Part shown: piece by piece, positions 1-62,313 of the stretch
How the letters are laid out: each line of letters starts with the position of its first letter
How positions within the stretch are numbered: the first letter of the stretch is position 1
Assembly: GCA_964553015.1 (NCBI GenBank)
Contig: CAZKJE010000002.1
Location: 14,175-78,174 of the forward strand
DNA: 64,000 nucleotides
Direction of reading: 5' to 3'
Source of the DNA: an uncultured Candidatus Saccharibacteria bacterium
Lineage (GTDB): Bacteria > Patescibacteriota > Minisyncoccia > Phycocordibacterales > UBA9973
The notes under the pieces: generated by a model
The model's database searches: none
What the model was told of the DNA's origin: nothing
What the model saw: the letters and a program-made list of their open reading frames with translations, nothing else
Made by a program: the position numbers and the translations under genes

Positions 1-173
1 CCGGCAGTGACACTCTCTACAGTGTAGTTGTCATTATGCTTGTAAAACATTAAAAGAGTATAGCACTTGCTATGCGAAATTAAAATGCTATTATTGGTGC
101 ACATGTCCCGTACTAAATTTTTGATTACGGGATATAAACGATAAACATTATTAGTTAAAATTTTAGTACTGGG

Positions 174-5248: not shown

Positions 5249-5854
5249 CTAGTTTTCCTGTTTTGACCCTGGAGTTTTGGATTTGGTGACTATTTCGTCT
5301 ATTATTCCGTACTTCTGCGCCTCTTGCGCATCCATGAAGAAGTCCCTCTCCACGTCTTTTTCAATCTGGGTGAGGGATTTGCCGGTATTTTTTGCCAAAA
5401 GTTTGTTTAAATTATCTCTGGTCTTTAAAATATGCTTTGCCGTGATTGCAATATCGGTGGCTTGGCCTTCCACTCCGCCCAAGGGCTGGTGGATCATGAT
5501 CTCGGCGTTCGGCAAAATATAGCGCTTGCCACGCTTACCGGAAGACATGATGATAGCGGCGCCTGAAGCAGCGAGGCCGACACAGAAGGTAGAAATATCC
5601 GGACGGACATGATTCATGGTGTCCACTATGGCCATAGTAGAAGTCACCGATCCGCCCGGAGAATTTATATAAAGATGAATATCTTTTTTAGCATCTTCGG
5701 ATTCTAGAAATAGAAGCTGGGCGATGACGATATTTGCGGTGTTGTCGTCAATCGGTCCGGCTAAAAAGACTATCCGCTCGCGCAAAAGGCGGGAATATAT
5801 GTCGTAAGCGCGTTCTCCAAATTGCGATTTTTCTATTACTGTTGGTATTAACAT
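5249..5854 (-). CDS. clpP: ATP-dependent Clp protease proteolytic subunit
   Basis: 201 aa. ClpP family throughout ([29 protein letters not shown]). Confidence 0.95.
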
Positions 5855-5893
5855 GTAAATATTATATTCTAATTTTTAACTTTTTCAAGCTTG

Positions 5894-5922: not shown

Positions 5923-5963
5923 ACCAAACGAATAAAAATTGAACCAAAAGGAGGATTCCAATC

Positions 5964-6143
5964 ATGAAGTTTATTTTCTTGCAGAATACATCTGACGGGT
6001 GCAAGCCCATGTGGCTTACGCCCCCGTTTGATGCCCCGTCCGTAGAAAGAGCGGATCAGATCACCAAAGAGCGATACCTCCACGAGGGCGAGCTCTACAA
6101 AAAGGTTGAAAAAACCGAGACGATCGTGAGAGGAATCTGGTAG
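5964..6143 (+). CDS. Unlisted small ORF (59 aa), hypothetical
   Basis: ATG at 5964 is preceded by AAAGGAGG at proper spacing. It has a consensus promoter upstream and tandem terminators downstream. Translation: MKFIFLQNTSDGCKPMWLTPPFDAPSVERADQITKERYLHEGELYKKVEKTETIVRGIW. It is below the 60-aa cutoff of the ORF track. G+C and codon choice are visibly richer than in neighbours. Confidence 0.5.
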   Translation: MKFIFLQNTSDGCKPMWLTPPFDAPSVERADQITKERYLHEGELYKKVEKTETIVRGIW

Positions 6144-28439: not shown

Positions 28440-28458
28440 GGTGTGTTATACTGTACTC

Positions 28459-29229
28459 ATGGCAATGAAAAAGCTCGTAATAGGCAACTGGAAAATGAAT
28501 CCGCTCACCTTAAAAGAAGCGGAAAAACTTTTTAGTGATATCGCTTTTGGAGTATCGCGCACTAAACATACTGATGTCGTAGTATGTCCTCCAGTTTTAT
28601 ATCTTGAAAAATTAACCAAAATCAGAACGAGTAAAATAAAACTCGGCGCGCAGGACAGTTTTTGGGGAGATACTGGCGCTTTTACCGGCGAAGTTTCCTC
28701 GGAAATGCTGTATGAAATTGGAGCACGGTATGTGATATTAGGGCATTCAGAAAGGCGGGCCTTGGGTGAAAGCAATGTTGATGTAAATAAAAAATTAAAA
28801 GGCGCTCTGGCATCAGGTCTTCGCCCCGTGTTGTGCGTAGGTGAAACCGTTCGGGACGAGAATCACGGCTATTTCAGCTTGGTAAAAACACAGCTGGAAG
28901 AATGCCTTGCCGGCATTTCAAAAAACTCAATTTCTAAAATTGTTATTGCCTATGAGCCAGTGTGGGCGATATCCAGCACCGTAAATCGCAAAGATGCCAC
29001 CGCCGATGATTCCAGAGAAATGAGTATTTTTATTAAAAAAATTCTGTCAGACAAATTCGGGAAAGGAGCCTCGGCTGTGAAAATAATATACGGCGGATCT
29101 GCCAATGAAAAAGATGCGGAAGATTTTCTCTCAAACGGAGGAGTGGACGGACTTCTTGCGGGTCGGGCCAGCTTGAGTGCCAAAAAATTCACGGAAATTG
29201 TAAAAATATGCGAAACATTAAGTCGTTAA
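28459..29229 (+). CDS. tpiA: Triosephosphate isomerase
   Basis: Start moved to ATG 28459. VIGNWKMN, LGHSERR and AYEPVWAI motifs. Confidence 0.9.
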   Translation: MAMKKLVIGNWKMNPLTLKEAEKLFSDIAFGVSRTKHTDVVVCPPVLYLEKLTKIRTSKIKLGAQDSFWGDTGAFTGEVSSEMLYEIGARYVILGHSERRALGESNVDVNKKLKGALASGLRPVLCVGETVRDENHGYFSLVKTQLEECLAGISKNSISKIVIAYEPVWAISSTVNRKDATADDSREMSIFIKKILSDKFGKGASAVKIIYGGSANEKDAEDFLSNGGVDGLLAGRASLSAKKFTEIVKICETLSR

Positions 29230-30350: not shown

Positions 30351-30693
30351 TCTTCTGTGCGTTTCCTGCTAAATCTTTTTCGTCGCCGACGGTTTCCGGC
30401 CAGACCCAGATATGCGCATGATGTATTTCTTCGCCGTATACTTGCGAGCGGACTATGTCCGCATTAAAAGCTTTCTTTTGCGCGAGCGCAATTTTTCTGG
30501 CAACTTCGAAATATTCTCCTATGTTTGGCACTTCCCATACCCAGCGGAAATGTTTCTTTGGAATGATCTGCACGTGCCCCGGAGCTATAGGCCGTATATC
30601 TAGAAAGGCTAAAAAATTGCTGTCTTCATATATCTTTGTAGCAGGTATCTCACCTTTTACAATTTTGCAGAAAATACAATTTTGTTCATTCAT
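30334..30693 (-). CDS. HIT-family nucleotide hydrolase/transferase
   Basis: 119 aa. Histidine triad EIHHAHIWVWP and HVQIIPKKH. Its 3' end overlaps the pgk 3' end by 17 nt (convergent). Confidence 0.85.
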   Translation of the reverse strand: MNEQNCIFCKIVKGEIPATKIYEDSNFLAFLDIRPIAPGHVQIIPKKHFRWVWEVPNIGEYFEVARKIALAQKKAFNADIVRSQVYGEEIHHAHIWVWPETVGDEKDLAGNAQKIIEAL

Positions 30694-30713
30694 AAGAATA
30701 TTATATCAAATTA

Positions 30714-30722
30714 TGCTAGAAT
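30714..30722 (+). promoter_or_regulatory. Extended -10 (TGcTAGAAT) 7 nt upstream of the recJ ATG
   Basis: The hexamer ends at 30722 and the ATG is at 30730. No SD is present. Confidence 0.5.
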
Positions 30723-30729
30723 TTCACCT

Positions 30730-32388
30730 ATGCATCAGTATGGCGAGCTGCTAAGGAGTCTTTTAGAGAAAAGGGGAATTTCTGATCTGGAAAAAGCGGA
30801 TATTTTCCTGAACCCCAGCTATGAACGCGATTTGCATGACCCTTTTTTAATGCGCGACATGGAGCGTGCCTGTGTTCGACTGCTTGAAGCCATTGAAAAA
30901 AAAGAGAAAATAGTGATATATGCAGACTACGACTGCGATGGCATACCGGGGGCTGTAATATTAAACGACCTGTTTAAATTACTGAATTATAAAAACTATG
31001 AAGTATATATACCACAGAGAAATTCTGAAGGCTATGGACTAAACATCGAAGCCATAGATAAGTTTAGAGATTCTGGCATCAAACTTATAATAACTATAGA
31101 CTTGGGGATCACGGCAGTAGAAGAAGTTGCTAAAGCAAAAACTTACGGCATTGATACGATAATAACCGATCACCATATTCCTCATGCGGTTCTGCCGGAG
31201 GCGTTTGCAATTCTAAATCCAAAAGTAGATGATTATCCGGAAAAAATGCTCTGTGGGGCGGGGGTAGCTTTTAAGTTTGCGCAGGGAATGATAAAGATGG
31301 CAAATGGTGATTTTGCCTTTAAAATAAAGCCCGGCGCCGAAAAATGGATGCTAGATATGGCAGGGCTCGCCACTCTTTCCGATATGGTGCCGTTAACGGG
31401 GGAGAACAGAGCTATTGCATATTTCGGAATGAAAGTTATGAAAAAATCTCCGCGCCCGGGTCTGCAAAAACTGCTTGCAAAAATGAATATTGATCAGCGA
31501 TATTTGTCTGAAGACGATATCGGTTTTATGGTTACCCCGAGATTAAACGCGGCCTCGCGCATGGATGATCCGATGCGGGCGTACGAACTTCTTTCCACTG
31601 ATGATGAGGTAGAAGCCGGAAGACTTGCTAGCCATCTGTCAAAAATAAACGACGACAGAAAAAGTTTGGTAAAAGGAATCATGCGGGAAGTTAATAAACA
31701 CTTTGAGGAGAGAAAGGAGACGGATGTGATAGTGATCGGGAATCCGGGGTGGCGCGTGGGCATACTCGGGCTTGTGGCCGGTAAAATATGCGACGAATAC
31801 GAAAAACCGGTTTTCGTGTGGGGGAAAGATGAAAATGACTGCATAAAAGGCTCCTGCCGAAGCGATGGATCGGTATCTGTGGTGGAGCTTATGACCGAAG
31901 CCAAAGATTCGTTCGTAGATTTTGGAGGACACGAGCTTGCCGGAGGATTTACAGTACGGAATGAAAAGATCCATTTTCTGGAAGAAGCATTGTCTGTATC
32001 TTTTCAAAAAGTAAAAAGGGCAGTAGCGGAAAATAAAGCTCTGCATGATGTTAAAACGGAATTAGGCGCGGTCAATATAAAAAACTGGAGAGATATAGAA
32101 AAAATGTCGCCCTTCGGACTCGCTAATCATAAGCCGGTTTTTCTATTTGAGAAAGCAAAAATTGAAAAAATAAAAAAATTCGGCAAAAATGGTTCCGGTG
32201 AGCATTTGGAAATAGTTTTTTCAGACGAAAGCAGCAAAAAAGCCACAGCCGTTTCTTTCTTTTCTGGGATTGATTCATTTGGCAAGCTATTGGAGGAAGC
32301 AAAAAATGTAAATGTTCTGGCGACTTTTGATCTGTCTAGGTTTAGAGGCAGAGAGGAGCTTCGTTTGAGAATTGTTGATATAATATAG
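30730..32388 (+). CDS. recJ: Single-stranded-DNA-specific exonuclease RecJ
   Basis: Start moved to ATG 30730. DHH motifs (DYDCDGI, ITDHH) and DHHA1 motif GGHELAGG. Confidence 0.9.
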   Translation: MHQYGELLRSLLEKRGISDLEKADIFLNPSYERDLHDPFLMRDMERACVRLLEAIEKKEKIVIYADYDCDGIPGAVILNDLFKLLNYKNYEVYIPQRNSEGYGLNIEAIDKFRDSGIKLIITIDLGITAVEEVAKAKTYGIDTIITDHHIPHAVLPEAFAILNPKVDDYPEKMLCGAGVAFKFAQGMIKMANGDFAFKIKPGAEKWMLDMAGLATLSDMVPLTGENRAIAYFGMKVMKKSPRPGLQKLLAKMNIDQRYLSEDDIGFMVTPRLNAASRMDDPMRAYELLSTDDEVEAGRLASHLSKINDDRKSLVKGIMREVNKHFEERKETDVIVIGNPGWRVGILGLVAGKICDEYEKPVFVWGKDENDCIKGSCRSDGSVSVVELMTEAKDSFVDFGGHELAGGFTVRNEKIHFLEEALSVSFQKVKRAVAENKALHDVKTELGAVNIKNWRDIEKMSPFGLANHKPVFLFEKAKIEKIKKFGKNGSGEHLEIVFSDESSKKATAVSFFSGIDSFGKLLEEAKNVNVLATFDLSRFRGREELRLRIVDII

Positions 32389-32390
32389 AA

Positions 32391-32882
32391 GTGACAGAGA
32401 AAACTATTAAAATTTATACTGACGGTTCAGCCAGAGGAAATCCGGGAAAAGCAGGCTGGGGAGCTGTTTTTCTTTTAGGCGATAAAGTTTTTGAAATGGG
32501 CGGGCGGTCCGATCACGCGACAAATAATCAGATGGAGCTCACTGCGCCAATAGAAGCGCTTAAATATTTAAAAAAATCCCCTAGGCAAGGTCTAGGGGAA
32601 AAAATTACACAGGGGAGTTCTGTGCAAATCGTGTCTGACTCAAAGTATGTTATTTTAGGTATTACCGAGTGGATCTTAAACTGGCAGAAAAATAATTGGC
32701 GAAATGCCGCAAAAAAGCCTGTTATGAATCGAGAACTTTGGGAAGAGCTGTACAAGCTTACGGAAGAATTAAAAACAACATGGGAATATGTAAAAGGCCA
32801 CAACGGCGACAAATATAATGACCGAGCAGATGAAATAGCGACAAGCTTTGCAGACAATGAGCCAGTGGAGTTGAAAAAATAA
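32391..32882 (+). CDS. rnhA: Ribonuclease HI
   Basis: 163 aa, GTG start. DGSARGNPG, NNQMEL, SDSKYV, KGHNGDKYNDRADEIA. Contains an in-frame palindrome at 32578..32598. Confidence 0.9.
   Translation: MTEKTIKIYTDGSARGNPGKAGWGAVFLLGDKVFEMGGRSDHATNNQMELTAPIEALKYLKKSPRQGLGEKITQGSSVQIVSDSKYVILGITEWILNWQKNNWRNAAKKPVMNRELWEELYKLTEELKTTWEYVKGHNGDKYNDRADEIATSFADNEPVELKK
32578..32598. repeat. GC-rich palindromic element, in frame in rnhA
   Basis: CCCCTAG-GCAAGGT-CTAGGGG (perfect 7-bp stem) encoding SPRQGLG. The ALK-to-VQIVSDS spacing is about 15 aa longer than in E. coli RNase HI as recalled from memory. Confidence 0.65.
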
Positions 32883-35331: not shown

Positions 35332-35340
35332 TGATAGTAT
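35332..35340 (+). promoter_or_regulatory. Extended -10 (TGaTAGTAT) 6 nt upstream of the glyA ATG
   Basis: The hexamer ends at 35340 and the ATG is at 35347. No SD is present. Confidence 0.5.
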
Positions 35341-35346
35341 ATAAAG

Positions 35347-36591
35347 ATGAAAGATAAAAAAATAGAAATGCTAATTAAAGGGGAGGAAAAAAGGCAACGG
35401 GAAGGGCTGGAGTTGATACCTTCAGAAAACTATGTTTCAGAAGACGTGCTTAAGGCGAATGGGTCAGTTTTTACAAACAAATATTCAGAAGGCTATCCGG
35501 GCAGGCGGTATTATGGTGGGCAGGATTTTACCGATCAGGTGGAAAGGCTAGCTATAGAAAGGATTTGCAAGCTTTTTAAATGTAAATTTGCGAATGTGCA
35601 GCCTCATTCCGGCGCGCCGGCAAACTTGGCAGTATACGCTGCGCTTCTGGAACCGGGCGATACCGTCCTAGGCATGGATCTCTCTCACGGCGGACACCTG
35701 ACCCACGGCCACCCGATGACTCTGCCGGCAAAGATATATAAATTCGTCACCTATAAAATGAAAAATCCGGATACCGGAGAAATTGATTACGAAGATATGC
35801 GAAAAGTGGCGCTTGCGACCAAACCGAAATTAATTATCGCCGGATTTTCTGCATATCCAAGAACTCTGGACTACAAAAAATTCGTGGATATTGCGCATGA
35901 AGTAGGGGCGATAACCATGGCCGACATGGCGCACATCGCCGGACTCATTGCTGCAGGCGTACTTCGTAATCCTTTTGATGATGGTTTTGATATTATTACT
36001 TCCACGACACACAAAACTCTCCGTGGTCCGCGCGGAGGAATAATTCTTACCCGCGAGAGCGAAGAAATAGCAAAGAAAATAGATAAATCAATTTTCCCCG
36101 GTATTCAGGGCGGCCCGCACATGCACACAATCGCGGCCAAAGCTGTCGCCTTTGGAGAAGCTATGACTCCAAAATATAAAACATATGCCAAGCAGATTCT
36201 GAAAAATGCGAAAGCCATGGCAGAAATTTTCAAGAAAAATAAAGTTCGCATGATCGGCGGCGGCACGGATAATCACCTAATTTTGGCAGATGTGTTTGGC
36301 TCGCTCGGAGTAACCGGCAAAGAAGCGCAGACTGTGCTGGACGAAGTAGGCATTACTTTGAACATGAATTCCATTGCGGGGGATACCAGAAAACCGCTTG
36401 ATCCTTCCGGTATCAGGTTTGGAACTCCGGCTATAACAACCAGAGGATTTAAAGAAAAAGAATGCAAAAAAGTTGCAGAAATGATGATCACAGTGCTAAA
36501 AAATAAAGACGATAAAAAGATAAAAGAATCAATCCACCAAGAAATCAAAAAACTTGCCAAAAAGTTTCCGATCCCAAAGAAGTTTGTATAA
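35347..36591 (+). CDS. glyA: Serine hydroxymethyltransferase
   Basis: 414 aa. SHGGHLTHG and the PLP-lysine context TSTTHKTLRGPRGG. Confidence 0.95.
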   Translation: MKDKKIEMLIKGEEKRQREGLELIPSENYVSEDVLKANGSVFTNKYSEGYPGRRYYGGQDFTDQVERLAIERICKLFKCKFANVQPHSGAPANLAVYAALLEPGDTVLGMDLSHGGHLTHGHPMTLPAKIYKFVTYKMKNPDTGEIDYEDMRKVALATKPKLIIAGFSAYPRTLDYKKFVDIAHEVGAITMADMAHIAGLIAAGVLRNPFDDGFDIITSTTHKTLRGPRGGIILTRESEEIAKKIDKSIFPGIQGGPHMHTIAAKAVAFGEAMTPKYKTYAKQILKNAKAMAEIFKKNKVRMIGGGTDNHLILADVFGSLGVTGKEAQTVLDEVGITLNMNSIAGDTRKPLDPSGIRFGTPAITTRGFKEKECKKVAEMMITVLKNKDDKKIKESIHQEIKKLAKKFPIPKKFV

Positions 36592-39546: not shown

Positions 39547-39993
39547 TCAACGTCCTTTAAAATCTCGGCGAATCTCGCGATCAGTGTCACGCTTTTTTAG
39601 AGTTTCGCGTTTATCAAATTTTTTCTTGCCTTTCACCAGGGCAATTTCCAATTTGATTTTCCTGCCTTTATTATACACTGAAATCGGCACTATTGTCAAA
39701 CTTTTATTCTTCTCGCTGCCTTGTAGCTCATTAATTTCTTTTTTGGTCAGCAAAAGTTTCCTATTGCGCAGAGGATCATAATCTTTTGGCGCATTTTTTG
39801 CCTGATATGGAGGTATGTTGGCATTGATCAGGTATGCTTCGCCGCCGCGTATAATTACAAAAGCCCCCTCGAGCGACATCTGACCCGTTCGTACAGCTTT
39901 TACTTCTGTTCCCAAAAGCTCAATACCGGTTTCGTGCTTTTCTAGGAATTCATAATTGAATCGCGCTTTGCGGTTTTCTGTATAACTAGCCAT
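39547..39993 (-). CDS. smpB: SsrA-binding protein SmpB
   Basis: 148 aa. NRKARFNYEF N-terminus and a basic C-terminal tail. Confidence 0.95.
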   Translation of the reverse strand: MASYTENRKARFNYEFLEKHETGIELLGTEVKAVRTGQMSLEGAFVIIRGGEAYLINANIPPYQAKNAPKDYDPLRNRKLLLTKKEINELQGSEKNKSLTIVPISVYNKGRKIKLEIALVKGKKKFDKRETLKKRDTDREIRRDFKGR

Positions 39994-40064
39994 AGCTTTA
40001 TCTTAACATAACTTTTCTTTATTTTATGATGACTATGATTCTATGTGCTTAATTGATAGTAAAT

Positions 40065-40129: not shown

Positions 40130-40642
40130 ATGAAAAATATAGAGAACGCGGGGCGTCTTTCCGAGGAAAAAGCTCAAAAGGAAGCCAAAGCAATTCAAGG
40201 TATGTCAGAGTTTAGGTCTTACGAGGAAGGCTACAAGAATCCAACAGCAGAACATTATGAAAAATCCTCAAAACATTTGGATAATCTAAAAGGGATAAGT
40301 TCTAAAGTTGCAGAGCTTTTTATAGAAGCAGCCGGACTAGGAAAGGATTTGAGAGATGAAATGGGTCCTGAAACACATAGGATATTTGAAATAGCCCAAA
40401 GAGATATTGTCCAACGCCTCAGATTAGAGGGTCTTTTTCTAAGATTGGGTAGTGAAGATCCAGAAGAAGAAAAAGAGAATATGGATTATATTCTTTCCAG
40501 ATGGGACAATGAGATTCGTTCAGATGAACGCATTAAGGATGTTTTCTTAGGGAAAGAGGAATTACTTAATAGGACAATAGAGTTTACTAAAAAGCACACC
40601 TTTCAACTTCTTGCTGGTATTAAGATAGAGATAGGAGAGTAA
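40130..40642 (+). CDS. Hypothetical cytoplasmic protein
   Basis: 170 aa. Helical and charged, with no recognised family. Confidence 0.5.
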   Translation: MKNIENAGRLSEEKAQKEAKAIQGMSEFRSYEEGYKNPTAEHYEKSSKHLDNLKGISSKVAELFIEAAGLGKDLRDEMGPETHRIFEIAQRDIVQRLRLEGLFLRLGSEDPEEEKENMDYILSRWDNEIRSDERIKDVFLGKEELLNRTIEFTKKHTFQLLAGIKIEIGE

Positions 40643-40713
40643 TATAAAAATTTTATAATTAAATCTCGCTTTTCGGTGTAATGAGACATAACTTTATATT
40701 AACATAGATTTTT

Positions 40714-40852
40714 ATTCCCCTCTTGAGGGGTGGCTCGCGTGCAAGACGGGGTGGATAATTTACCTCACCCTGCTGCCCTCTCCTGTAAAGGGGAGGGGAA
40801 AATTCATCCACCTCCCTCCGACCCATGTCGGAGTACTCCTCAAGAGGAGAAT
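40714..40852. mobile_element. MITE-like GC-rich element with terminal inverted repeats
   Basis: The left end ATTCCCCTCTTGAGGGGT and the reverse complement of the right end (ATTCTCCTCTTGAGGAGT) match at 16 of 18 positions. T-runs flank the element. The interior holds further hairpins (CCCTCTCC-TGTAAA-GGGGAGGG and CTCCGAC-CCAT-GTCGGAG). It is non-coding. Confidence 0.5.
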
Positions 40853-40926
40853 TTTTTACTCATATACTACTCTAATCCTATAAATAAGGGTTTTTTGACT
40901 TTGCTAGCAACAAAGTGTAAAAATGC

Positions 40927-40954
40927 TTGACAAAAAATGTAGATATGCTATGAT
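40927..40954 (+). promoter_or_regulatory. Promoter of the candidate structured RNA
   Basis: TTGACA, 16 nt, TATGAT, with TGc immediately upstream of the -10 box. Confidence 0.5.
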
Positions 40955-40960
40955 ATAAGC

Positions 40961-41250
40961 ATCTCATAGATTTTATTTGATTTAATATGAGGTCAAGAGA
41001 TTGTTTCGTATAGTCTCTTGCATATCCCTAAATCAAATGTAGTTTCTCAAAAACGATTAGCGAATTGAGAGATTTTCGCTAAAAACGCTTGAGAAATGAA
41101 GAGCTGAAATCTCTCTGGGTCTGGAGCGCTCGGGTTACCTTTAGCTCTTTGATCCATCTGTTGGTAAAAACCCGAACATCATCGCCGTCGGTTCGAAACA
41201 ACCCTCGGCACCCCACCCAAAGCTTCGGCCGCGGGTGGGTTTTTATTTTT
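40961..41250 (+). ncRNA. Candidate structured non-coding RNA of unknown class (about 290 nt)
   Basis: It has its own promoter. It contains three long perfect-stem hairpins (40975..41038, 41043..41096, 41099..41149). It ends in the intrinsic terminator CCCACCC...GGGTGGG plus TTTTTATTTTT (41212..41250). The only ORF across it is the implausible N-extension of ftsH. Confidence 0.35.
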
Positions 41251-41286
41251 ATACTGAATTTTTTATTTCACATTTTGGGTTTTTTG

Positions 41287-41295
41287 TGCTATTAT
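41287..41295 (+). promoter_or_regulatory. Extended -10 (TGcTATTAT) 6 nt upstream of the ftsH ATG
   Basis: The hexamer ends at 41295 and the ATG is at 41302. No SD is present. Confidence 0.5.
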
Positions 41296-41301
41296 CTCAA
41301 A

Positions 41302-43230
41302 ATGGATTTAAATTTTCTTAACAATAAAACTGGCGACAAAGGGCGAAAGAAACTTCCGAAGCCGACGAAGTTCAGTGGGAATATTTTAGGCGCGATAATT
41401 TTTTTCATGCTCATCACTGCGCTTTACTTGGTGGTAGCAGGAGACCAAAAAACGGTTCCAGAAATTCCAATTTCCGACCTGGCGCAAAGCGTATCTGCGG
41501 GAGAGGTAAAAAATATTTTAGTTTCCGGAGACAAGCTCACCATCACGTACAAAAACGATCAAGTTAAGACATCCAAGAAAGAAGTGGGCTCGGCGCTGTC
41601 GCAGACACTTTTTAATTATGGGGTGCCGCCGGAAGCACTTGCGCAGACAGAAATAGAAATAAAAAACGAAAGTGGATTTGCGTACTGGCTCGTAAATATT
41701 CTGCCGTTTCTTCTGCCGGTAATTTTTATTCTGTTGTTTTTCTGGTATTTATCACGCCAGGTAAAAGGCGCAGGCATGCAGGCGTTTACTTTCGGACAAT
41801 CCAAGGCCCGCATCACAGATCCGAATGATAAAAATAATAAAGTTACTTTCAAAGACGTGGCCGGAGCCAAAGAAGCGAAGGAAGAATTGAAAGAGATTGT
41901 AGACTTTTTGAAAAGTCCGAAAAAATTTCTGGATATTGGCGCAAGGATTCCAAAAGGTGTAATGCTGACAGGAGCCCCGGGTACAGGAAAGACGCTGCTC
42001 GCTCGCGCTGTAGCAGGCGAGGCCTCCGTGCCGTTCTTTCATTTATCCGGCAGCGAATTCGTGGAAATGTTCGTTGGTGTCGGGGCTTCGCGTGTGCGTG
42101 ACCTATTTAAAATGGCTAAAAAAGCTGCACCGGCCATCATATTCGTGGATGAAATAGACGCTATCGGGCGCACGAGAGGGGGAGGCTTTGGCGGCGGGAA
42201 TGATGAACGCGAGCAAACCTTGAACCAGATTTTGGTGGAGATGGACGGCTTTGAACCGAACGATAAAGTGATAGTCATGGCGGCTACAAACAGGCCGGAC
42301 GTCCTCGATCCGGCGCTCATTCGCCCGGGACGTTTTGATAGAAAAGTAATGATAGATCTTCCGGATCGCGCTGACCGCGAAGAAATTTTAAAAATTCACG
42401 CTGTTAAAAAACCTCTCGCCGAAGATATAAATTTGAAATTAATTGCCGAACGTACACCTGGTTTTTCTGGCGCCGACCTGTATTCGCTCATGAACGAAGG
42501 TGCGATACTCGCCGCACGCGAGAACCGCAAGAAAGTTTTTCAATTTGATCTCATACGCGCGATAGAAAAAGTAATGCTCGGTCCTGAGAGGAAGAGCCAT
42601 TTGCTTTCCAAAAAAGAAAAAGAAATTACTGCGTACCATGAAGCGGGTCATGCGATCGTCGCATCAGTTTTACCTCACGCAGATCCCGTTCATAAAGTTT
42701 CTATCATCTCCCGCGGAAACGCCGGAGGATACACTTTGAAGCTTCCGCTTGAAGAAAGGCGATTGCAATCTAAAAAAGAATTTATAGATGACATTGCGAT
42801 GTCGCTCGGAGGATATGTGGCCGAGCAGATGATGTTCGGAGATATCACGACTGGTCCGTCAAGCGATTTGCAGGCAGCAACAAACATTGCGCGCGCCATG
42901 GTGACGCGCTGGGGCATGTCGGACATTATCGGACCGATAGCCTTGAACGATTCTCCCGGCCGTTCTATGTATGGAGGAGAAACAGTAGAAAAAGAATTTT
43001 CCGAAAGTGTTTCTACTAAAGTAGATGCTGAAGTTTCAAGAATAATTAGTGATGGGCTAAAGTCTGCGCAAATCGTAATTACCGAAAACAAAAAAGCCTT
43101 TGAGGCTATAGCACAAAAACTCATAGAAGTTGAAACCATAGAACAGGAGGAATATGAAAAAATTCTCATAGCGCACGGAATTATCTTAAAAAAGAAAGAA
43201 GTCATAGCTCCACCGGAAGGTACAAAGTAA
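41302..43230 (+). CDS. ftsH: ATP-dependent zinc metalloprotease FtsH
   Basis: Start moved to ATG 41302 (MDLNFLNN...). Two TM segments, Walker [12 protein letters not shown], the SRH region and the HEAGHA zinc site. Confidence 0.95.
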
Positions 43231-43323: not shown

Positions 43324-43998
43324 ATGGCGAGAAAACAAGATAAACAAAGCGTTTTGGCTATGCGCAAGAGAGGAATGAGCTACAGCCAGATCAAAGGGAA
43401 AATAAAAATAAGCAAAAGCACTTTGAGTGTCTGGCTTAAAGATTTACCACTCGATGAAAAACGGATAAGAGAATTAAGAGACAATAGCCCTATTCGTATT
43501 GAAAAATTCAGAAATACAATGCGAGCAAAAAAAGAGATGAGACTTTATGAGGTATATAAAAAAGTCGCAAATGATATTTGTGATCTCTCAAAAAGAGATT
43601 TATTTTTAACAGGCTTGTTCTTATATTGGGGAGAAGGCACGAAATCACAAAATTCTTTAGTTGCCCTCACAAATACAAATCCAGCCATGGTTAAGTTTTT
43701 CATACAATGGCTAAAATTGTTTGGAGTAAAAAGCAAAGATTTGAAAATTAAACTACATTTATACTCCGATATGAAAATTAAAGAAAGTCTTGATTTTTGG
43801 TCAAAAGAGCTTAATATTCCGATAAGCCAGTTTTATAAGCCGTATGTTAAGAAAAATACTCTCAAATCTATCTCGTATAAAAATGGCTTTGGAAAAGGAA
43901 CATGTAGTGTTATATTTGGGAGTAGAGATCTTTGGGAATATATAACAATGGGATTGAAATATATTTCTGAAATTAGTAATGAAAATTTCCGCCCCTAG
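43324..43998 (+). CDS. HTH plus LAGLIDADG-like (homing-endonuclease-like) protein
   Basis: 224 aa. N-terminal resolvase-type HTH (RGMSYSQIKGKIKISKSTLSVWLK). A single LAGLIDADG-like motif (LTGLFLYWGEGTK). The last 10 nt, including the TAG stop, lie inside the tRNA gene. Confidence 0.45.
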   Translation: MARKQDKQSVLAMRKRGMSYSQIKGKIKISKSTLSVWLKDLPLDEKRIRELRDNSPIRIEKFRNTMRAKKEMRLYEVYKKVANDICDLSKRDLFLTGLFLYWGEGTKSQNSLVALTNTNPAMVKFFIQWLKLFGVKSKDLKIKLHLYSDMKIKESLDFWSKELNIPISQFYKPYVKKNTLKSISYKNGFGKGTCSVIFGSRDLWEYITMGLKYISEISNENFRP

Positions 43999-44061
43999 CT
44001 CAGTTGGTAGAGCAATCCGCTTATACCGGATCGGTCCTTGGTTCGAGTCCAAGGGGGCGGA
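43989..44061 (+). tRNA. tRNA-Ile with anticodon UAU
   Basis: Cloverleaf read by hand: acceptor CCGCCCC/GGGGCGG, D-arm GCTC-AGTTGGTA-GAGC, anticodon arm ATCCG-CTTATAC-CGGAT, variable loop CGGTC, T-arm CTTGG-TTCGAGT-CCAAG, discriminator A. CCA is not encoded. Confidence 0.8.
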
Positions 44062-44063
44062 CA

Positions 44064-47749: not shown

Positions 47750-49957
47750 TTACTCGAAGTGAAACTCTCCGGCTTTGGTGCGGACTTTTTGTTTTAGGAG
47801 AGGATATTTACTTAGTTCGGGGTCAGATTCTATCATGCTAATAGCTTCAGTTCTAGCCGCTTCTACCATTTTTATATTTTTTATAGCTTCCATGCCGAGA
47901 TCAGTGATGCCCCACTGCTTTGTACCGCCAAGCTCTCCGGCGCCTCGGAGTGTGAGATCTAGCTCTGCCAATTCAAAACCATTTTTTGCAGTCTTGAGCG
48001 CTTTAAGGCGGTCTACGGTTTTTGCGCTTTTGGCTTCAGCAAAAATATAACAATATGCCTGATGCGAACTTCGGATCACCCGTCCGCGGAGCTGATGCAA
48101 TTGGGCCAATCCAAAACGCTCCGCACCTTCTATGATAATTATTGTCGCATTTGGAACATTCACTCCGACTTCTACCACGGACGTAGCGCATAAGATATGT
48201 ATCTTGCCTTCGGTAAATTCCTGCATTACCTCTTCTTTTTTTTCTCTGCTCATCTTGGAATGAAGTACGCCTATTTCATACTCTTTGAACACTCGCTCTT
48301 TTAATATTTTAGCTTCAGCTACGGCAGATTTTACATTTAAAGCCATTTCTTTTTCAGGATCAGGCTCAAAAATTCGCGGGCAGATGACGTAGAGCTGTCT
48401 ACCGGCCTCCAATTCTTTTCTGATTGCTTCGTAAGTGTTAGTCCTCTTGTCCGGAGTAATAATCTCTGTAATTATTTGTTTTCTTCCTACCGGCATTTCG
48501 TCTAAAAGCGACAGATCCAAATCTCCGTATATCGTGAGCGCGAGCGTGCGGGGGATAGGAGTTGCGGTCATGGATAGCAGGTGCGGAGCGATGTTATCTT
48601 TGCGCACTAACTTTCTTCTTTGTGCTGTGCCGAAGCGATGCTGTTCGTCTATCACCACAAGTGCAAGATTTTTAAATTTAACAGTTTTTTGAATGAGCGC
48701 ATGTGTACCGATAAGTATAGGTATCTCGCCGTTTCCGATCCATTTCAAAAGTTGTGCTCGGGAAATTGTTGTCCAGCTTGCCCCGTCCTTGGCGGGACCG
48801 ATTGTTTTTGATGGAAATTTTCTGCAGCCACTTCCAGTGATCAAGCCTATGTTTATCGGCAAATGCTTGAAATATTCTATGAAAGATTCAAAATGTTGCG
48901 TTGCTAATATTTCTGTCGGCGCCATGTATGCCACTTGCAAATTACCAAAATTTTGTGGTTTACCCTGGGTGTAATCGAAGGGCCTTTGCTGTACTGTCAC
49001 ATAGCTTGCAGTCGCAGCTACAGCAGTTTTACCGGAGCCGACATCGCCTTCGAGTAATCGCGACATCGGAAAATTCTTTGCCAGATCAGCAAGTATCGTT
49101 GCGATGGATTTTTCTTGTGATTTTGTCGGTTTAAAAGGGAAGCGCTTCAGAAATTCTTCTGCACTTTTCTTTTCAGGTTTTATTTGAAAAGATTTATTTT
49201 TTCTATATTCAAATTTATCATGCTGGCGTTCCAGCTGAATACAGAATACTTCTTCAAAAGCGAATCGTTTGCGTGCCGACTGCGCATCGGCTTTATTTTT
49301 CGGTTTGTGTATCCAAATAAGCGCGGTTTTCAGAGTAGGCAAATGATATTTTTTTAAAATTTCGGCCGGAATATAATCTTCAATATTATCCAAAGTTTTT
49401 TCTTTAAATATTTTTTCAATTGCGTGGTAAAACCATTTGGAAGTGATACCTCGCGTCTCCGCATAAATTGGATAAGACAGACCCTCCCCCAACCCCTCCC
49501 TTCGCAGGGCGGGGCTTTTAAATAATGTGTCGTGCGAATCTATCGGCATATTCGGCAATTTTTCAAATTCCGGATTAGCAAGATACATGCCATTTTTGCC
49601 TTGCGTGACTTTGCCCGTCAGCTTCACATTTTCGCCGTCATGGATCATTTTTGCCAAGTAAGTCTGATTGAACCATGTGATTTTTATTTTTCCAGATAAA
49701 TCTTCTATTTCGCCTTCGCCCATGGGCATTTTTGAACGAAATCCTTTTTTGGTTTTCAATTTTGAAACTTTGCCATATACAGTAGCCATATCTCCGGCAA
49801 CTAATTCAGCAATATTCTTTACCTCGCTGATATCGCTGTAGCGGACAGGGAAGTGAAACAAGAGATCAGCCACAGAAAAAATCTTGAGCTTATGCAAAGC
49901 CCTTTTCTGGCTTTCATCCAGCCTGAATTTTAGTTCAAGCTTATCGCTTAAATTCAT
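47750..49957 (-). CDS. recG: ATP-dependent DNA helicase RecG
   Basis: Start moved to ATG 49957, because the track extension overlaps the pilin gene. Wedge domain and helicase motifs GDVGSGKT and VIDEQHRFG. Contains an in-frame GC element at 49481..49516. Confidence 0.9.
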   Translation of the reverse strand: MNLSDKLELKFRLDESQKRALHKLKIFSVADLLFHFPVRYSDISEVKNIAELVAGDMATVYGKVSKLKTKKGFRSKMPMGEGEIEDLSGKIKITWFNQTYLAKMIHDGENVKLTGKVTQGKNGMYLANPEFEKLPNMPIDSHDTLFKSPALRREGLGEGLSYPIYAETRGITSKWFYHAIEKIFKEKTLDNIEDYIPAEILKKYHLPTLKTALIWIHKPKNKADAQSARKRFAFEEVFCIQLERQHDKFEYRKNKSFQIKPEKKSAEEFLKRFPFKPTKSQEKSIATILADLAKNFPMSRLLEGDVGSGKTAVAATASYVTVQQRPFDYTQGKPQNFGNLQVAYMAPTEILATQHFESFIEYFKHLPINIGLITGSGCRKFPSKTIGPAKDGASWTTISRAQLLKWIGNGEIPILIGTHALIQKTVKFKNLALVVIDEQHRFGTAQRRKLVRKDNIAPHLLSMTATPIPRTLALTIYGDLDLSLLDEMPVGRKQIITEIITPDKRTNTYEAIRKELEAGRQLYVICPRIFEPDPEKEMALNVKSAVAEAKILKERVFKEYEIGVLHSKMSREKKEEVMQEFTEGKIHILCATSVVEVGVNVPNATIIIIEGAERFGLAQLHQLRGRVIRSSHQAYCYIFAEAKSAKTVDRLKALKTAKNGFELAELDLTLRGAGELGGTKQWGITDLGMEAIKNIKMVEAARTEAISMIESDPELSKYPLLKQKVRTKAGEFHFE
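49481..49516. repeat. GC-rich palindromic element, in frame in recG, opposite orientation to the carB copy
   Basis: CCCCTCCC-TTCGCA-GGGCGGGG (49493..49514) with a CCCTCCCCCAA leader. Read on the minus strand as SPALRREGLGEGL. Confidence 0.7.
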
Positions 49958-49971
49958 AAAACCATTATACC

Positions 49972-50424
49972 CTATCTGGTCAGTGTAATAGATTGGCCAA
50001 GTTCCGCATTTGGAGCGGCTATAGTGTAGCGGCCATTTGAATCCACTAATACAGTGTATTGCGTGTCTGCCGCTGTTCCCGCAGTCAATCCAGCTCCGCC
50101 GGGGTCCATAGGAATTACTGAAGGAATATATGTAGGTACCAGGCAGCTCAAGTCCATATTCCCTGCGCCGGTTCCAATATTTTCGGCAGTGGAAGTTATG
50201 GTAACGCCGGCACAAGTAAATATACCTTTGTTATCGGCAAGATTTTGCCCGATTGCATTTAAAATAGTCTCGACGTTGCTAATGCGTTGGCTGTTTCTCG
50301 CCTGCGCAAACTGACGAGCGGGATTTATAGCTACTACCACGATAGATGCCAATATCGCGATAATACCGATCACAACTAAAATTTCAATAAGCGTGAAACC
50401 TCTTTTCCTCGCAACTTTTTTCAT
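49972..50424 (-). CDS. pilA: Type IV major-pilin-like protein
   Basis: 150 aa. Classic prepilin N-terminus KRG/FTLIEILVVIGIIAILASIVV and a C-terminal Cys pair. Confidence 0.85.
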   Translation of the reverse strand: MKKVARKRGFTLIEILVVIGIIAILASIVVVAINPARQFAQARNSQRISNVETILNAIGQNLADNKGIFTCAGVTITSTAENIGTGAGNMDLSCLVPTYIPSVIPMDPGGAGLTAGTAADTQYTVLVDSNGRYTIAAPNAELGQSITLTR

Positions 50425-50460: not shown

Positions 50461-50547
50461 AATATAATTATAATTTTACGCTTCAATAATTATCTTGTAA
50501 AGATAAAATGTTTATAACTTAATCAATTTTTCATTTCTATCTTTTTC

Positions 50548-50556
50548 TGGTATATT
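50548..50556 (+). promoter_or_regulatory. Extended -10 (TGgTATATT) 6 nt upstream of the tmk ATG
   Basis: The hexamer ends at 50556 and the ATG is at 50563. No SD is present. Confidence 0.5.
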
Positions 50557-50562
50557 TCCTGT

Positions 50563-51273
50563 ATGGCAAAAAAGTCAAAACGAGGTAAACTCATAGTCAT
50601 AGATGGCACGGACGGCAGCGGAAAAGCGACACAGATAGGCCTCCTCATAAAACATCTAAAAAAAGACGGCAAAAAAGTAAAGCTTGTCGATTTTCCGGAA
50701 TACTATTCAAACTTTTTTGGCGCATTCATAGGGCATTGTCTTTCCGAGCAATATTATAATTTCGTAAAAGTGCATCCCAAAATTGCTTCCGTGCTTTACG
50801 CCGCAGACCGCTTTGAATCAAAAGATAAAATACAAAAATGGCTAGCAGAGGGAAACATCGTAATTGCAAACAGGTACGCGAGCGCGAATCAGATCCATCA
50901 GGGCGGAAAGATTGCTAATACACAAAAAAGAGAAAATTTTTTAAAATGGCTTGCCGAGATGGAGTACGAGGTCTTTAAAATTCCAAGGCCGGATGCAGTT
51001 TTTTATTTAAGCGTGCCGATCCCGATAGTTATGAAGCTGATAAAAGAAAGAAATAAGGAAAGTAGGCGCGCCTACCTCGGCAAGAAAAAAGATGTGGTGG
51101 AAAAAGATAAAAATTATATGGAAAATTCCAGAAAAAGCGCACTCTGGCTCGCCAAGACCCAGAGGGGCTGGATAAAAATTGAATGCCTAAAAAATAGCGA
51201 ACTAGAAAGCCGTGAAGTTATTCACGATAAGATTTATGAAAAAGTTAAAAATATTTTGCTTGCCCGTCCATAG
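50563..51273 (+). CDS. tmk: Thymidylate kinase
   Basis: 236 aa. P-loop IVIDGTDGSGKATQ and a DRF/DRY-type motif (AADRFES). Confidence 0.9.
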   Translation: MAKKSKRGKLIVIDGTDGSGKATQIGLLIKHLKKDGKKVKLVDFPEYYSNFFGAFIGHCLSEQYYNFVKVHPKIASVLYAADRFESKDKIQKWLAEGNIVIANRYASANQIHQGGKIANTQKRENFLKWLAEMEYEVFKIPRPDAVFYLSVPIPIVMKLIKERNKESRRAYLGKKKDVVEKDKNYMENSRKSALWLAKTQRGWIKIECLKNSELESREVIHDKIYEKVKNILLARP

Positions 51274-51299
51274 CTTTAGCGAAGGAGGGGAATAAACCA

Positions 51300-51722
51300 A
51301 TGAAAATCAAAGTTAAAAAATTAAAAGAAAATGCAAAGCTGCCTACATATCATCACCCCGGAGATGTGGGCATGGATTTGTATTCTATGGAAGAAGTGAC
51401 AGTAAAACCCGGAGAGCACTATCGTTTCTGGCATGGCTTTGCTCTTGAATTTCCGGAAGGCTATGCGGCTCTTATAATGGATAAAGGAAGTATTTCCAGG
51501 GCTGGATTTGCGCATATGGGCGGAGTATATGATGCAGGCTACAGAGGCGAATACAATACACTATTGGTAAATTTGTCCGATCAGCCGTATACTTTTGAAG
51601 TAGGTGATAAAGTTTCCCAGCTTGTCATCACGCCGGTAGAAATTGCAGAATTGGAAGAAACAGATACTTTGAGCGAGTCTGCTCGCGGGGAAGGTAAATT
51701 TGGAAGTACCGGAAGAAAATAA
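51300..51722 (+). CDS. dut: dUTP diphosphatase
   Basis: 140 aa. GVYDAGYRGE and the C-terminal RGEGKFGSTG motif. Preceded by AGGAGGGG. Confidence 0.9.
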   Translation: MKIKVKKLKENAKLPTYHHPGDVGMDLYSMEEVTVKPGEHYRFWHGFALEFPEGYAALIMDKGSISRAGFAHMGGVYDAGYRGEYNTLLVNLSDQPYTFEVGDKVSQLVITPVEIAELEETDTLSESARGEGKFGSTGRK

Positions 51723-56396: not shown

Positions 56397-56600
56397 TTAG
56401 TCGTCTCCTACGTGATCGTTATGGTCTATGGGCGTGATATCGTATGGTGATTTTGGTTTTTCGCCGGGTGGCGGTGGTTCGGGAAGAATACCTATTCGTA
56501 GTTCTTCCTGTATCTCTCGGAACGGCTTTCTCTGGGGAGTTGGTTCCCATTCTTCTTGGTGGTTTTTCATGTTTTTATTATAGCACAAAAAGTTATGCAC
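56397..56600 (-). CDS. Small Pro/Glu-rich hypothetical protein
   Basis: ORF of 67 aa (or 57 aa from the internal ATG at 56570). No recognised family. Confidence 0.35.
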   Translation of the reverse strand: MHNFLCYNKNMKNHQEEWEPTPQRKPFREIQEELRIGILPEPPPPGEKPKSPYDITPIDHNDHVGDD

Positions 56601-59900: not shown

Positions 59901-60448
59901 TGGCGAGCTGGCCGGAAGTAAAAAAGACATCTTTTATCTCCAAGTTGCTTAAAAATGATCCAAGCAAAAAAATAATTGAAAATATGGAGAGCGTCAGAAG
60001 AGTAGTCACACTCGGACTCGAAGCTCGACAGAAAACCGGAATAAAAGTCCGCCAGCCTCTTAATCAATTACGAATTAAAAATTACGAATTAGGAATTGAG
60101 TATGCAGACTTGATTAGAGAAGAGCTGAATGTCAGAGAAGTTATTTTTGATAATTCTATTGAAGGCGAGGTGTGGCTCGATATAAGAATAAACGAAGAGC
60201 TCAAAGCTGAAGGGGATTACAGGGAGTTTGTCCGCGCGCTGCAGGATATGAGAAAGAAAACCGGACTGACGCCGAGCGACGTGGTCTCTGTTACTTTTGA
60301 AACAAACAAAGCAGGCAAGGAACTTATTAAAAAATTCGAAGCTGAAATGAAAAAAACAGTGCTTGTCTCTACGATAGAATTTTCGGAAAATGAAGGAGAA
60401 AAAATAAAAATCGACAATCTTCACTTCAGGATAAAAATTGATAAATAA
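56948..60448 (+). CDS. ileS: Isoleucine--tRNA ligase with a nested histidine-phosphatase domain
   Basis: 1166 aa. IleRS hallmarks: WDTHGLPVE, editing-domain [10 protein letters not shown] and [13 protein letters not shown], KMSKS. An extra domain of about 163 aa lies at residues 522-684. Confidence 0.9.
   Translation: [1166 protein letters not shown]
58511..58999 (+). other. Histidine-phosphatase (PGAM-like) domain inserted within ileS
   Basis: Ordered motifs [43 protein letters not shown] and LIISHGNPI. Flanked by IleRS CxxC (ACEACKK) and CxC (VCSCGG) segments. Confidence 0.75.
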
Positions 60449-60452
60449 AAAT

Positions 60453-61055
60453 ATGAAGCTCGTTATTTTTGATTTTGATGGGGTGCTGGTTGATACGCTC
60501 ATAATGCATTATGAGATCAGTAAAAAAATCAATAAAAATATGTCTCTTGACATGTTTCGTTCCATTTTTAGTGGGAATATCTACGATTCATTAAAAAATA
60601 ATCCTGCCATAAAACAACATCCTCAGTTTTTCGAGCAATATGAAGACAAATCACGAGAGCTCAAAGTGCCTCAATCGTTGAAGGGTTTGATAGGTAAATT
60701 AAGCAAAGAACATACCCTTGCGATTGTTTCATCAACTCCATCTGCGCTCATTAGAAAAATTCTAAAACAAGAAGCTGTTTTAAATTATTTTTCTGATGTA
60801 CTTGGGGCAGATGTTAATACAAGTAAAGTTATTAAAATAAGAATGCTTTTGGGAAAATATAAAATTAAACAAGAAGATGCAGTTTTTATTACAGATACCA
60901 CAGGGGACATTTTTGAGGCCCTAGAATGCGGAGTAAAAGCCATAGCTGTCACATGGGGTTTTCACGAAGAAAAAACATTAGAAAAATCAAATCCAGCGAA
61001 AATTGTTAGGAGCCCCGAAGAATTATTTGAAGCTGTGAAGCAAATTTTGTGTTAA
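60453..61055 (+). CDS. HAD-superfamily hydrolase
   Basis: Start moved to ATG 60453. Motif I is IFDFDGVLVDT. Motifs II (SST) and IV (TDTTGD) are also present. Confidence 0.8.
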   Translation: MKLVIFDFDGVLVDTLIMHYEISKKINKNMSLDMFRSIFSGNIYDSLKNNPAIKQHPQFFEQYEDKSRELKVPQSLKGLIGKLSKEHTLAIVSSTPSALIRKILKQEAVLNYFSDVLGADVNTSKVIKIRMLLGKYKIKQEDAVFITDTTGDIFEALECGVKAIAVTWGFHEEKTLEKSNPAKIVRSPEELFEAVKQILC

Positions 61056-61064
61056 AATAGAAGG

Positions 61065-61703
61065 ATGAAGATAACAAAGCTGGGGCACTCTTGTTTTATC
61101 GCAGAGCCAAAACAGGGAGTGCGAGTGATGACAGATCCTGGGGCATTTTCGCCTTTGGCAACAGAAATAAAAAATATTTCTGCAATTTTAATTACCCATG
61201 AACATTCGGATCATCTGCATATTGAAACCTTAAAAAAAGTTTTAGATAACAATCCTGATGCAGTCGTTATAACAAATACTGAAGTAGGCAAACACCTTGA
61301 AGAAGCCGGAATCAAGTATATAAAAATTGAAAACGGTCAAAAATATGATTTAAACGGAGTAATTATCGTCGGTTTTGGAAATACTCATGCCGAAATTTAT
61401 CCAACAATTGGTCCGTTTCAAAATACTGGATATATAATTGAGGGCCTCTGTTATCCGGGAGACGCCCTAGAGAACCCTGATTCAAAAGTAAACATAATAG
61501 CTCTTCCTATTATTGGACCATGGATGAGACTAAGAGACGCGATTGATTACGCAAAAGCATTAAAACCAAAAGCCGTATTTCCAATTCATGATGCAATACT
61601 GCAGAACTGGGCGACTTTCGTGTCGGCTACTTCAGAGAAATTACTAAAAGAAGCTGGTATAGAATTTAAAAAATTGGAACTAGGTAAGGAAGAAGACCTG
61701 TAA
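61065..61703 (+). CDS. MBL-fold metallo-hydrolase
   Basis: 212 aa. THEHSDH metal-binding motif. Confidence 0.8.
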   Translation: MKITKLGHSCFIAEPKQGVRVMTDPGAFSPLATEIKNISAILITHEHSDHLHIETLKKVLDNNPDAVVITNTEVGKHLEEAGIKYIKIENGQKYDLNGVIIVGFGNTHAEIYPTIGPFQNTGYIIEGLCYPGDALENPDSKVNIIALPIIGPWMRLRDAIDYAKALKPKAVFPIHDAILQNWATFVSATSEKLLKEAGIEFKKLELGKEEDL

Positions 61704-62298: not shown

Positions 62299-62307
62299 TG
62301 CTATAAT
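62299..62307 (+). promoter_or_regulatory. Extended -10 (TGcTATAAT) 6 nt upstream of the ATG at 62314
   Basis: The hexamer ends at 62307 and the ATG is at 62314. No SD is present. Confidence 0.5.
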
Positions 62308-62313
62308 TGCTGA

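Follow-up and report, generated by a model that had tools for sequence, protein, structure and literature searches.

How messages are selected for translation is a question raised by a 64-kb stretch of DNA (contig CAZKJE010000002.1, positions 14,175 to 78,174; here called the window), in which sequences resembling the -10 box of bacterial promoters stand 6 to 7 nucleotides (nt) upstream of many start codons that lack a Shine-Dalgarno (SD) site. We propose, with a probability of about 0.85, that these sequences are extended -10 promoters that start transcription at the ATG and so give rise to leaderless translation, and that the arrangement is lineage-wide in Nomurabacteria and related Paceibacteria. 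The window is about 41% G+C and, by Pfam matches, carries clpP, carAB, tig, nusA, type IV pilus genes, tpiA-pgk, recJ, glyA, infC-rplT, smpB with an adjoining tmRNA gene, ftsH, a class II ribonucleotide reductase, recG, tmk-dut, argS and ileS, which is the housekeeping set of a small-genome bacterium. The best matches of its FtsH among contigs representing one genome per species come from Candidatus Nomurabacteria and other Paceibacteria (Patescibacteria, or candidate phyla radiation [CPR]) at 64 to 88% identity, and a search of public assemblies for the identical protein gave no match. The host is a groundwater relative of Candidatus Nomurabacteria with a small genome. For comparison, we assembled 160 related loci, and 80 of the related genomes, reached through ftsH, supplied 1.26 Mb of sequence.

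How often the box and the start codon are found together in the window was determined in several ways. An initial annotation had quoted seven strings of an extended -10 box and a start, at ftsH, pilB, recJ, glyA, tmk, the gene at 62314 and a surface-protein gene, and each is present to the letter at its position (Table 1). It had further spoken of many such genes, and indeed eight cases that it did not list (clpP, tig, tpiA, the HIT-family gene, rnhA, smpB, recG and the metallo-beta-lactamase-fold [MBL] gene at 61065) were found, as was a gene truncated by the left edge. Thus, of about 55 genes, at least 15 carry a -10 box 6 to 7 nt before a start codon borne out by family profiles, not counting the edge-cut gene, and a leaderless geometry is predicted for about 25% of the genes in the window. 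Ten of the 15 boxes have the TG extension, and all of the start codons behind them are ATG except the GTG of rnhA. The motif TGNTANNNT followed by six nt and ATG occurred 13 times on the two strands, compared to an expectation of 1.88 +/- 1.31 from 100 dinucleotide-preserving shuffles, none of which reached 13. When all 137 occurrences of TGNTANNNT were considered, an ATG opening a reading frame (ORF) of at least 80 amino acids (aa) followed at spacing 6 in eight cases and at spacing 7 in four, whereas other spacings gave about 0.5. Moreover, when 55 gene starts were curated for gene-level tests, TANNNT was found 6 to 7 nt before 14 of them but before only 3.8% of other ATGs (P = 1e-8), and the TG-extended box preceded ten of the 55 at that distance (P = 1e-14).

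Not every match to the motif marks a gene. The sequence TGCTATATT-N7-ATG at 26308 was discarded because the pseudopilin gene beginning at 26221 encloses it, and sites at 15059, 46650 and 63026 were discarded as internal or antisense chance matches. At two further TGNTANNNT-N6-ATG sites, both perfect, the ORF is only short, being 57 aa long without a Pfam match in one case (ATG 56570; region 56400-56585, minus strand) and 28 aa long in the other (ATG 40689; region 40606-40704, minus strand). These may represent small proteins, promoters of non-coding RNAs, or chance.

The same spacing recurs in related genomes. In the 1.26 Mb from the 80 relatives, an ATG with an ORF of at least 80 aa followed TGNTANNNT 154 times at spacing 6 and 73 times at spacing 7 over a background near 11, and TATAAT alone gave 84 and 31 over about 4. 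Close relatives (420 kb) contributed 81 and 37 of the extended sites and more distant Paceibacteria (840 kb) contributed 73 and 36. The sharp peak of distances near the start that the initial annotation anticipated is therefore found both in the window and in the related loci. The peak is specific to ATG, as GTG gave 11 and 10 against a background of 5, and TTG, CTG, ATA and AAG gave none. ATG specificity fits leaderless translation, which is expected to depend on AUG. Starts were also chosen to be unambiguous, with an ORF of at least 150 aa, a first ATG no more than 12 codons from the upstream stop, and no other candidate for 25 codons. A box at 6 to 7 nt preceded 40.5% of such starts compared to 2.3% of internal in-frame ATGs, and for TG-extended boxes the values were 23% and 0.1%.

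Conservation was also apparent gene by gene when a box was counted at 5 to 8 nt from the aligned start. A box was present in 59 of 70 smpB orthologues (43 at spacing 6 and 53 with TG), in 56 of 64 recJ relatives (47 at spacing 7 and 55 with TG), in 23 of 25 glyA relatives (extended, at spacing 6), in 33 of 54 recG orthologues, in 34 of 53 rnhA relatives (where the start is mostly ATG) and in 15 of 22 tpiA relatives. For ftsH, TGNTANNNT lay 6 to 8 nt from the aligned ATG in 22 of 24 close orthologues. Three genes served as controls, and infC had the box in 1 of 46 orthologues, rplT in 8 of 45, and pgk in 1 of 34. At most one orthologue was available among the related loci for pilB, the surface-protein gene and the gene at 62314, and none was available for tmk; in the sole orthologue of the gene at 62314, the box is extended and stands at spacing 7. 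The letters of the hexamer drift between orthologues while the geometry of box and start is retained.

We note that some relatives have, in place of the -10 box, TCTAAYGGG-ATG, a recurrent element directly upstream of the ATG that is absent from the window. The element precedes ORFs of at least 100 aa in 19 of 29 occurrences, including ftsH, recJ and recG, and often has a hairpin upstream, such as ACGGAAATCTAAAGATTTCC-TAyyTC. Sites include L003:5499, L009:2639 and 10001, L047:10001, L060, and position 4001 of L102, L103, L112, L116 and L130, in our numbering of the related loci.

What the box is can be read from its composition. A logo of 319 non-identical sites at spacing 6 reads T (56%), R (75%), T (59%), G (54%), any base, and TAtAAT, and the motif TRTGnTAtAAT is the sigma-70 extended -10 consensus. 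No information was found at -35 in the same logo. The base before the ATG is C or T in 71% of the sites and G in only 8%, and the pyrimidine at -1 together with the A and T of the ATG makes a Y-R-Y start element. Mapped transcription start sites (TSSs) of 49 bacteria center on the seventh base after the -10 box (PMC12641261). With a spacing of 6, the A of the ATG is the seventh base after the hexamer and thus falls where mapped TSSs center (PMC12641261). Single promoters can nonetheless have a -35 element, as at ftsH, where TTCACA precedes tgcTATTAT by 17 nt and where TTTCAC(t/a) is kept in close relatives.

The genomic context of the box is likewise that of a promoter. Among the related loci, TG boxes precede 23 to 52% of divergent genes but only 4 to 12% of genes that lie 10 nt or less behind a co-directional neighbor, and boxes are also enriched at the heads of units. 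Divergence is most extreme for the HIT-family gene and recJ, whose start codons are separated by 36 bp and whose boxes stand back to back at 30700-30708 (minus strand) and 30714-30722 (plus strand). Their divergence is kept in 64 of 64 relatives, and in about 30 of them both genes are boxed and the start codons are 17 to 46 bp apart (mode 36). A spacer of this size leaves no room for a 5' untranslated region (UTR). Finally, the box is also found at other distances. In the infC relatives, where the TTG start is conserved, a gcTAttaT box lies about 40 to 50 nt upstream of it and downstream of the tmRNA gene, and a type IV pilin gene in the window has a promoter-like sequence ahead of a leader (Table 1). 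As the box stands at a larger and variable distance in leadered genes, it behaves as a promoter element and not as a ribosome site at a fixed distance.

The start of infC itself deserves comment. In the window (39070, minus strand) and in the orthologues of L001 to L036, the gene begins with TTG-CGN-GAA behind a tAtAtaaa, both of them conserved, and appears to be leadered but without an SD. The non-AUG start is reminiscent of the autoregulation of IF3, which operates through unusual start codons.

Whether the start codons are correctly placed bears on all of the above. Full-length NCBIfam profiles were run on translations begun at the upstream in-frame stop, with residues counted from the proposed start, and the first profile positions fell no more than 8 residues from that start for pilB, recJ, tpiA, recG, rnhA, tmk, glyA and clpP. 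Position 2 of TIGR02538 matched residue 8 of PilB, position 3 of TIGR00644 matched residue 6 of RecJ, position 3 of TIGR00041 matched residue 7 of Tmk, and position 3 of TIGR00493 matched residue 2 of ClpP. Similarly, position 1-2 of the TIM profile matched residue 3 of TpiA, and residue 15 of RecG matched position 18, residue 4 of RnhA position 3, and residue 3 of GlyA position 1 of their respective profiles. The exception to the profile test is FtsH, for which the alignments of 24 of 24 close relatives begin at residue 1; for RecJ, residue 1 is an ATG in 62 of 64 relatives with an aligned N terminus. Taking the longest ORF would instead start ftsH at TTG 41089, pilB at TTG 22604, recJ at TTG 30682 and recG at TTG 50215. 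The extended ORFs of ftsH and pilB cross hairpins followed by T-runs, and that of pilB also crosses the end of the preceding gene. We conclude that the profiles (pilB and recJ) and the alignments of relatives (ftsH and recJ) bear out the corrected starts that were proposed earlier for these three genes. The motif, its spacing, ATG specificity, conservation and context, and the start codons behind it, are features directly observed in these sequences. Gene callers that are based on SD sites or on the longest ORF misplace starts in these genomes, and the -10 geometry offers a simple rule with which to correct them across the lineage. We note that the TTG-extended recG ORF (47750-50215) contains the 150-aa type IV pilin gene (49975-50424, minus strand; N_methyl motif, GFTLIE) between recG and tmk, which a greedy longest-ORF pass therefore missed.

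How the genes without a box begin is also informative. Boxless starts had GGAG or GAGG upstream in 7.5% of cases compared to 8.1% of internal controls, and thus SD sites are not enriched. Instead, boxless starts are A-rich (45 to 54% A at -10 to -2), have AAAA in 41% of cases compared to 18%, and have T at -1. Box-bearing starts are poorer still in SD-like sequence, with a GGAG, GAGG or AGGA core in 1.1% compared to 12.5% of controls, and no such core was found within 20 nt upstream of the seven genes for which the absence of an SD had been claimed. The initial annotation had set these genes against dut and the foreign-looking ORFs at 5964 and 18958, which were thought to use SD sites. GGAGG-type strings do precede those three starts, but with SD-like motifs not enriched at starts of the lineage, they are at most putative SD sites; counting carA, the number of such strings is about what chance allows. 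Of the 16S genes of Parcubacteria, only 48% were found to carry the anti-SD motif CCTCCT (PMC9297842), and the absence of SD enrichment at boxless starts agrees with the loss of the anti-SD in many Parcubacteria (PMC9297842). Rfam found no rRNA gene in the window, its matches being one tmRNA and one tRNA only, and exact and fuzzy searches of the 160 related loci found no universal 16S or 23S sites.

How the box might direct expression can be outlined as follows. From the sequence we infer a sigma-70-type holoenzyme that would recognize the extended -10 box (TRTGnTAtAAT) with little or no contribution from -35 and open the DNA. RNA polymerase would then start on the A of the ATG, or within one base of it, such that the mRNA would begin with 5'-AUG and have neither an untranslated leader nor an SD site. 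The ribosome and initiator tRNA would bind the terminal AUG directly, without SD pairing, as they do on the leaderless mRNAs of Actinobacteria and Deinococcus. Promoters could thereby fit into spacers of 20 to 40 bp or into the last codons of an upstream gene. The sequence-based and comparative tests available all agree with this interpretation, which the initial annotation had also favored. More broadly, we consider it about evenly balanced whether Nomurabacteria and related Paceibacteria have largely given up SD-guided initiation, with roughly 40% or more of genes translated from 5'-terminal AUGs and the rest from A-rich leaders without an SD.

Several observations weigh against leaderless expression from the box. 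A generic scan for -35/-10 pairs did not separate the sites from shuffles (43 versus 37.7 and 55 versus 44.7), and thus a promoter model based on the -35 is not useful here. Within the window, TGNTANNNT-N7-ATG occurred four times compared to 2.08 expected, which is not significant, and two of the four are pilB and recJ. The related loci are mutually syntenic, and counts taken from them are not independent events. Finally, five boxes, namely those of tpiA, rnhA, glyA and the genes at 61065 (MBL) and 62314, lie 3 to 20 nt behind a co-directional gene, and at these, read-through transcripts with internal ATGs probably coexist with any that start at the box.

The last point leads to the alternative that fares best, namely, that the boxes are real promoters but that the same ATGs are also translated internally on polycistronic, SD-less read-through mRNA, by re-initiation or by entry at A-rich sequence. 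No terminator separates those five of the 15 boxes from the gene before them, and in the relatives 21% of tightly coupled genes keep a box of some kind. Moreover, internal initiation without an SD must exist in any case, because the non-leaderless genes of the lineage start on A-rich sequence without one. Read-through could hardly serve all of the boxes, however, as a hairpin and T-run precede both ftsH and pilB, and the divergent HIT, recJ, smpB, tmk and clpP genes are out of its reach. We regard such double use as a tentative possibility, one that falls short of even odds, and it would supplement leaderless translation rather than replace it.

That the box is instead a non-SD ribosome-binding or translation-enhancing motif on leadered mRNAs, like that of the Bacteroidetes-like genomes in GeneMarkS-2 group B, is very improbable. 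The box does occupy the place expected of a ribosome-binding site, the lineage does lack SD enrichment, and some boxes do lie at internal operon positions. The logo nonetheless matches the sigma-70 extended -10 element, including the TG at -15/-14 and the invariant-type TA...T, and the gene distribution is wrong: group B motifs precede all genes (PMC6028130), whereas the box is found at only about 25 to 40% of genes, is missing from nearly all infC and most rplT orthologues, and, in its TG form, is roughly 2 to 6 times commoner at divergent than at tightly coupled genes of the related loci. Furthermore, the same box stands 35 to 50 nt upstream of leadered genes, and within the 36 bp between HIT and recJ a promoter placed any further upstream would fall inside the opposite gene. 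We reject the translational reading on these four grounds. Chance in an AT-rich genome, or a choice of start codons to fit the motif, is ruled out for practical purposes: TANNNT is common at 41% G+C (2,537 sites) and its plain peak is weak in the window, but the shuffles, the spacing histograms of the window and of related genomes (which are their own internal control), the unambiguous starts, and the persistence of the box at starts set by protein profiles or orthologue alignment alone, with the motif ignored, all argue otherwise.

Leaderless design itself is already known. In GeneMarkS-2 group C genomes, a Pribnow box lies 6 to 8 nt from the start (PMC6028130). Those genomes include Mycobacterium tuberculosis, Streptomyces and Deinococcus deserti, and they resemble the present case in that TANNNT lies at that distance in 25 to 50% of transcription units, box-bearing genes lack an SD, and AUG starts dominate. 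They differ in lineage, being high-GC Actinobacteria or Deinococcus rather than Patescibacteria/CPR with small genomes of about 38 to 42% G+C. The box considered here, moreover, is usually TRTG-extended, and while the remaining genes of group C use SD sites, no SD enrichment was found here. Leaderless status was mapped experimentally in group C and is deduced from sequence in the present case.

The box also resembles the extended -10 promoters of Escherichia coli and Bacillus subtilis, which have T-R-T-G-n before the hexamer and a weak or dispensable -35. Extended -10 promoters ("TGn", or the "TRTG" -16 region) of E. coli and Firmicutes normally drive leadered, SD-containing mRNAs, whereas the present box is fixed 6 to 7 nt from the ATG. 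A further precedent, from the same broad lineage, is the loss of the anti-SD in a subgroup of Parcubacteria (Tsurumaki et al. 2022, PMC9297842). That study covers rRNA and ribosomal proteins, however; it does not contain the word "leaderless" and does not state how mRNAs are selected. In the literature searched, we found no paper linking "leaderless" genes in this sense to Patescibacteria, the CPR, Saccharibacteria or Parcubacteria, and the occurrence in the Nomurabacteria lineage is apparently unreported.

Why the arrangement matters follows from these comparisons. It may answer the question left by the loss of the anti-SD in many Parcubacteria, namely, how messages are chosen for translation there. 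If true, abandonment of the SD would mirror, on the side of the mRNA, the loss of the anti-SD and the reduction of the ribosome that have been reported in Parcubacteria, and a CPR lineage would become a low-GC group in which leaderless use is as high as in Actinobacteria or Deinococcus. A promoter set against the start codon also serves genome compaction, as it removes the 5' UTR and permits divergent starts 17 to 46 bp apart. Finally, the boxes could provide ready cassettes of promoter and start for expression in CPR bacteria, once these can be cultured and transformed.

Table 1. Box-bearing starts and contrasting starts in the window (hexamer in capitals; spacing is the number of nt between hexamer and start codon)
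Feature	Coordinates	Strand	Sequence	Spacing	Start	Remark
ftsH	41287..41304	+	tgcTATTAT-ctcaaa-ATG	6	ATG 41302	
ftsH -35-like hexamer	41267..41272	+	TTCACA			17 nt 5' of -10 box
pilB	22732..22750	+	tgtTATAAT-agagaag-ATG	7	ATG 22748	
recJ	30714..30732	+	tgcTAGAAT-ttcacct-ATG	7	ATG 30730	
HIT-family gene	30691..30708	-	tgaTATAAT	6	ATG 30693	PF01230 match
glyA	35332..35349	+	tgaTAGTAT-ataaag-ATG	6	ATG 35347	
tmk	50548..50565	+	tggTATATT-tcctgt-ATG	6	ATG 50563	
DUF11 surface-protein gene	62299..62316	+	tgcTATAAT-tgctga-ATG	6	ATG 62314	
Surface protein (PKD/CARDB)	19850..19868	+	aagTATAAT-tgagtat-ATG	7	ATG 19866	No TG
clpP	5852..5869	-	gaaTATAAT	6	ATG 5854	
tig	13808..13825	-	ataTAGTAT	6	ATG 13810	Trigger_N domain from residue 3
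tpiA	28444..28461	+	tgtTATACT	6	ATG 28459	Box overlaps end of upstream gene
rnhA	32376..32393	+	tgaTATAAT	6	GTG 32391	Box within last recJ codons
smpB	39991..40008	-	tgtTAAGAT	6	ATG 39993	
recG	49955..49972	-	gggTATAAT	6	ATG 49957	Box abuts pilin stop codon
MBL gene	61050..61067	+	tgtTAAAAT	6	ATG 61065	
Edge gene	48..65	-	tgcTATACT	6	ATG 50	Runs off left end of window
Pilin gene (leadered contrast)	50473..50501	-	TTTACA-17-TAAAAT		ATG 50424	Promoter-like sequence about 45 nt 5' of ATG; A-rich leader without SD
dut (contrast)	51282..51302	+	AAGGAGGGG			SD-like sequence upstream
ATG 18958 (contrast)	18946..18960	+	AAGGAGGG		ATG 18958	Sequence upstream of start
ATG 5964 (contrast)	5948..5966	+	AAGGAGGA		ATG 5964	Sequence upstream of start; 59-aa ORF, no family match

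The region upstream of ftsH has other features of its own. A stretch at 40927-41250 (plus strand) begins with a near-consensus promoter, TTGACA-16-tgcTATGAT, continues for about 290 nt that contain no convincing ORF, and ends in a hairpin and T-run directly upstream of the ftsH promoter. It is far more stably folded than shuffled sequence (z = -4.7). The stretch had no Rfam match at E <= 1, and blastn showed no conservation near ftsH in the relatives. We consider it a candidate for an unannotated small RNA. Moreover, G+C-rich palindromic segments, such as cccctcttgagggg, cctctcctgtaaaggggaggg and ctcctcaagaggag, are clustered at 40700-40860, within the long spacer that separates ftsH from the gene at 40130.

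Two further observations concern isoleucine. AUA is read in most bacteria by a lysidine-modified CAU tRNA, and the window encodes a tRNA-Ile with the anticodon TAT (43989-44062, plus strand) that overlaps the last codons of the ORF for a helix-turn-helix (HTH) protein (43324-43998). The ORF for isoleucyl-tRNA synthetase (56948-60448, plus strand) contains an internal histidine-phosphatase domain (PF00300, His_Phos_1; E = 2e-23) at about residues 559 to 646 of its translation, an unusual domain insertion between the halves of the catalytic core.

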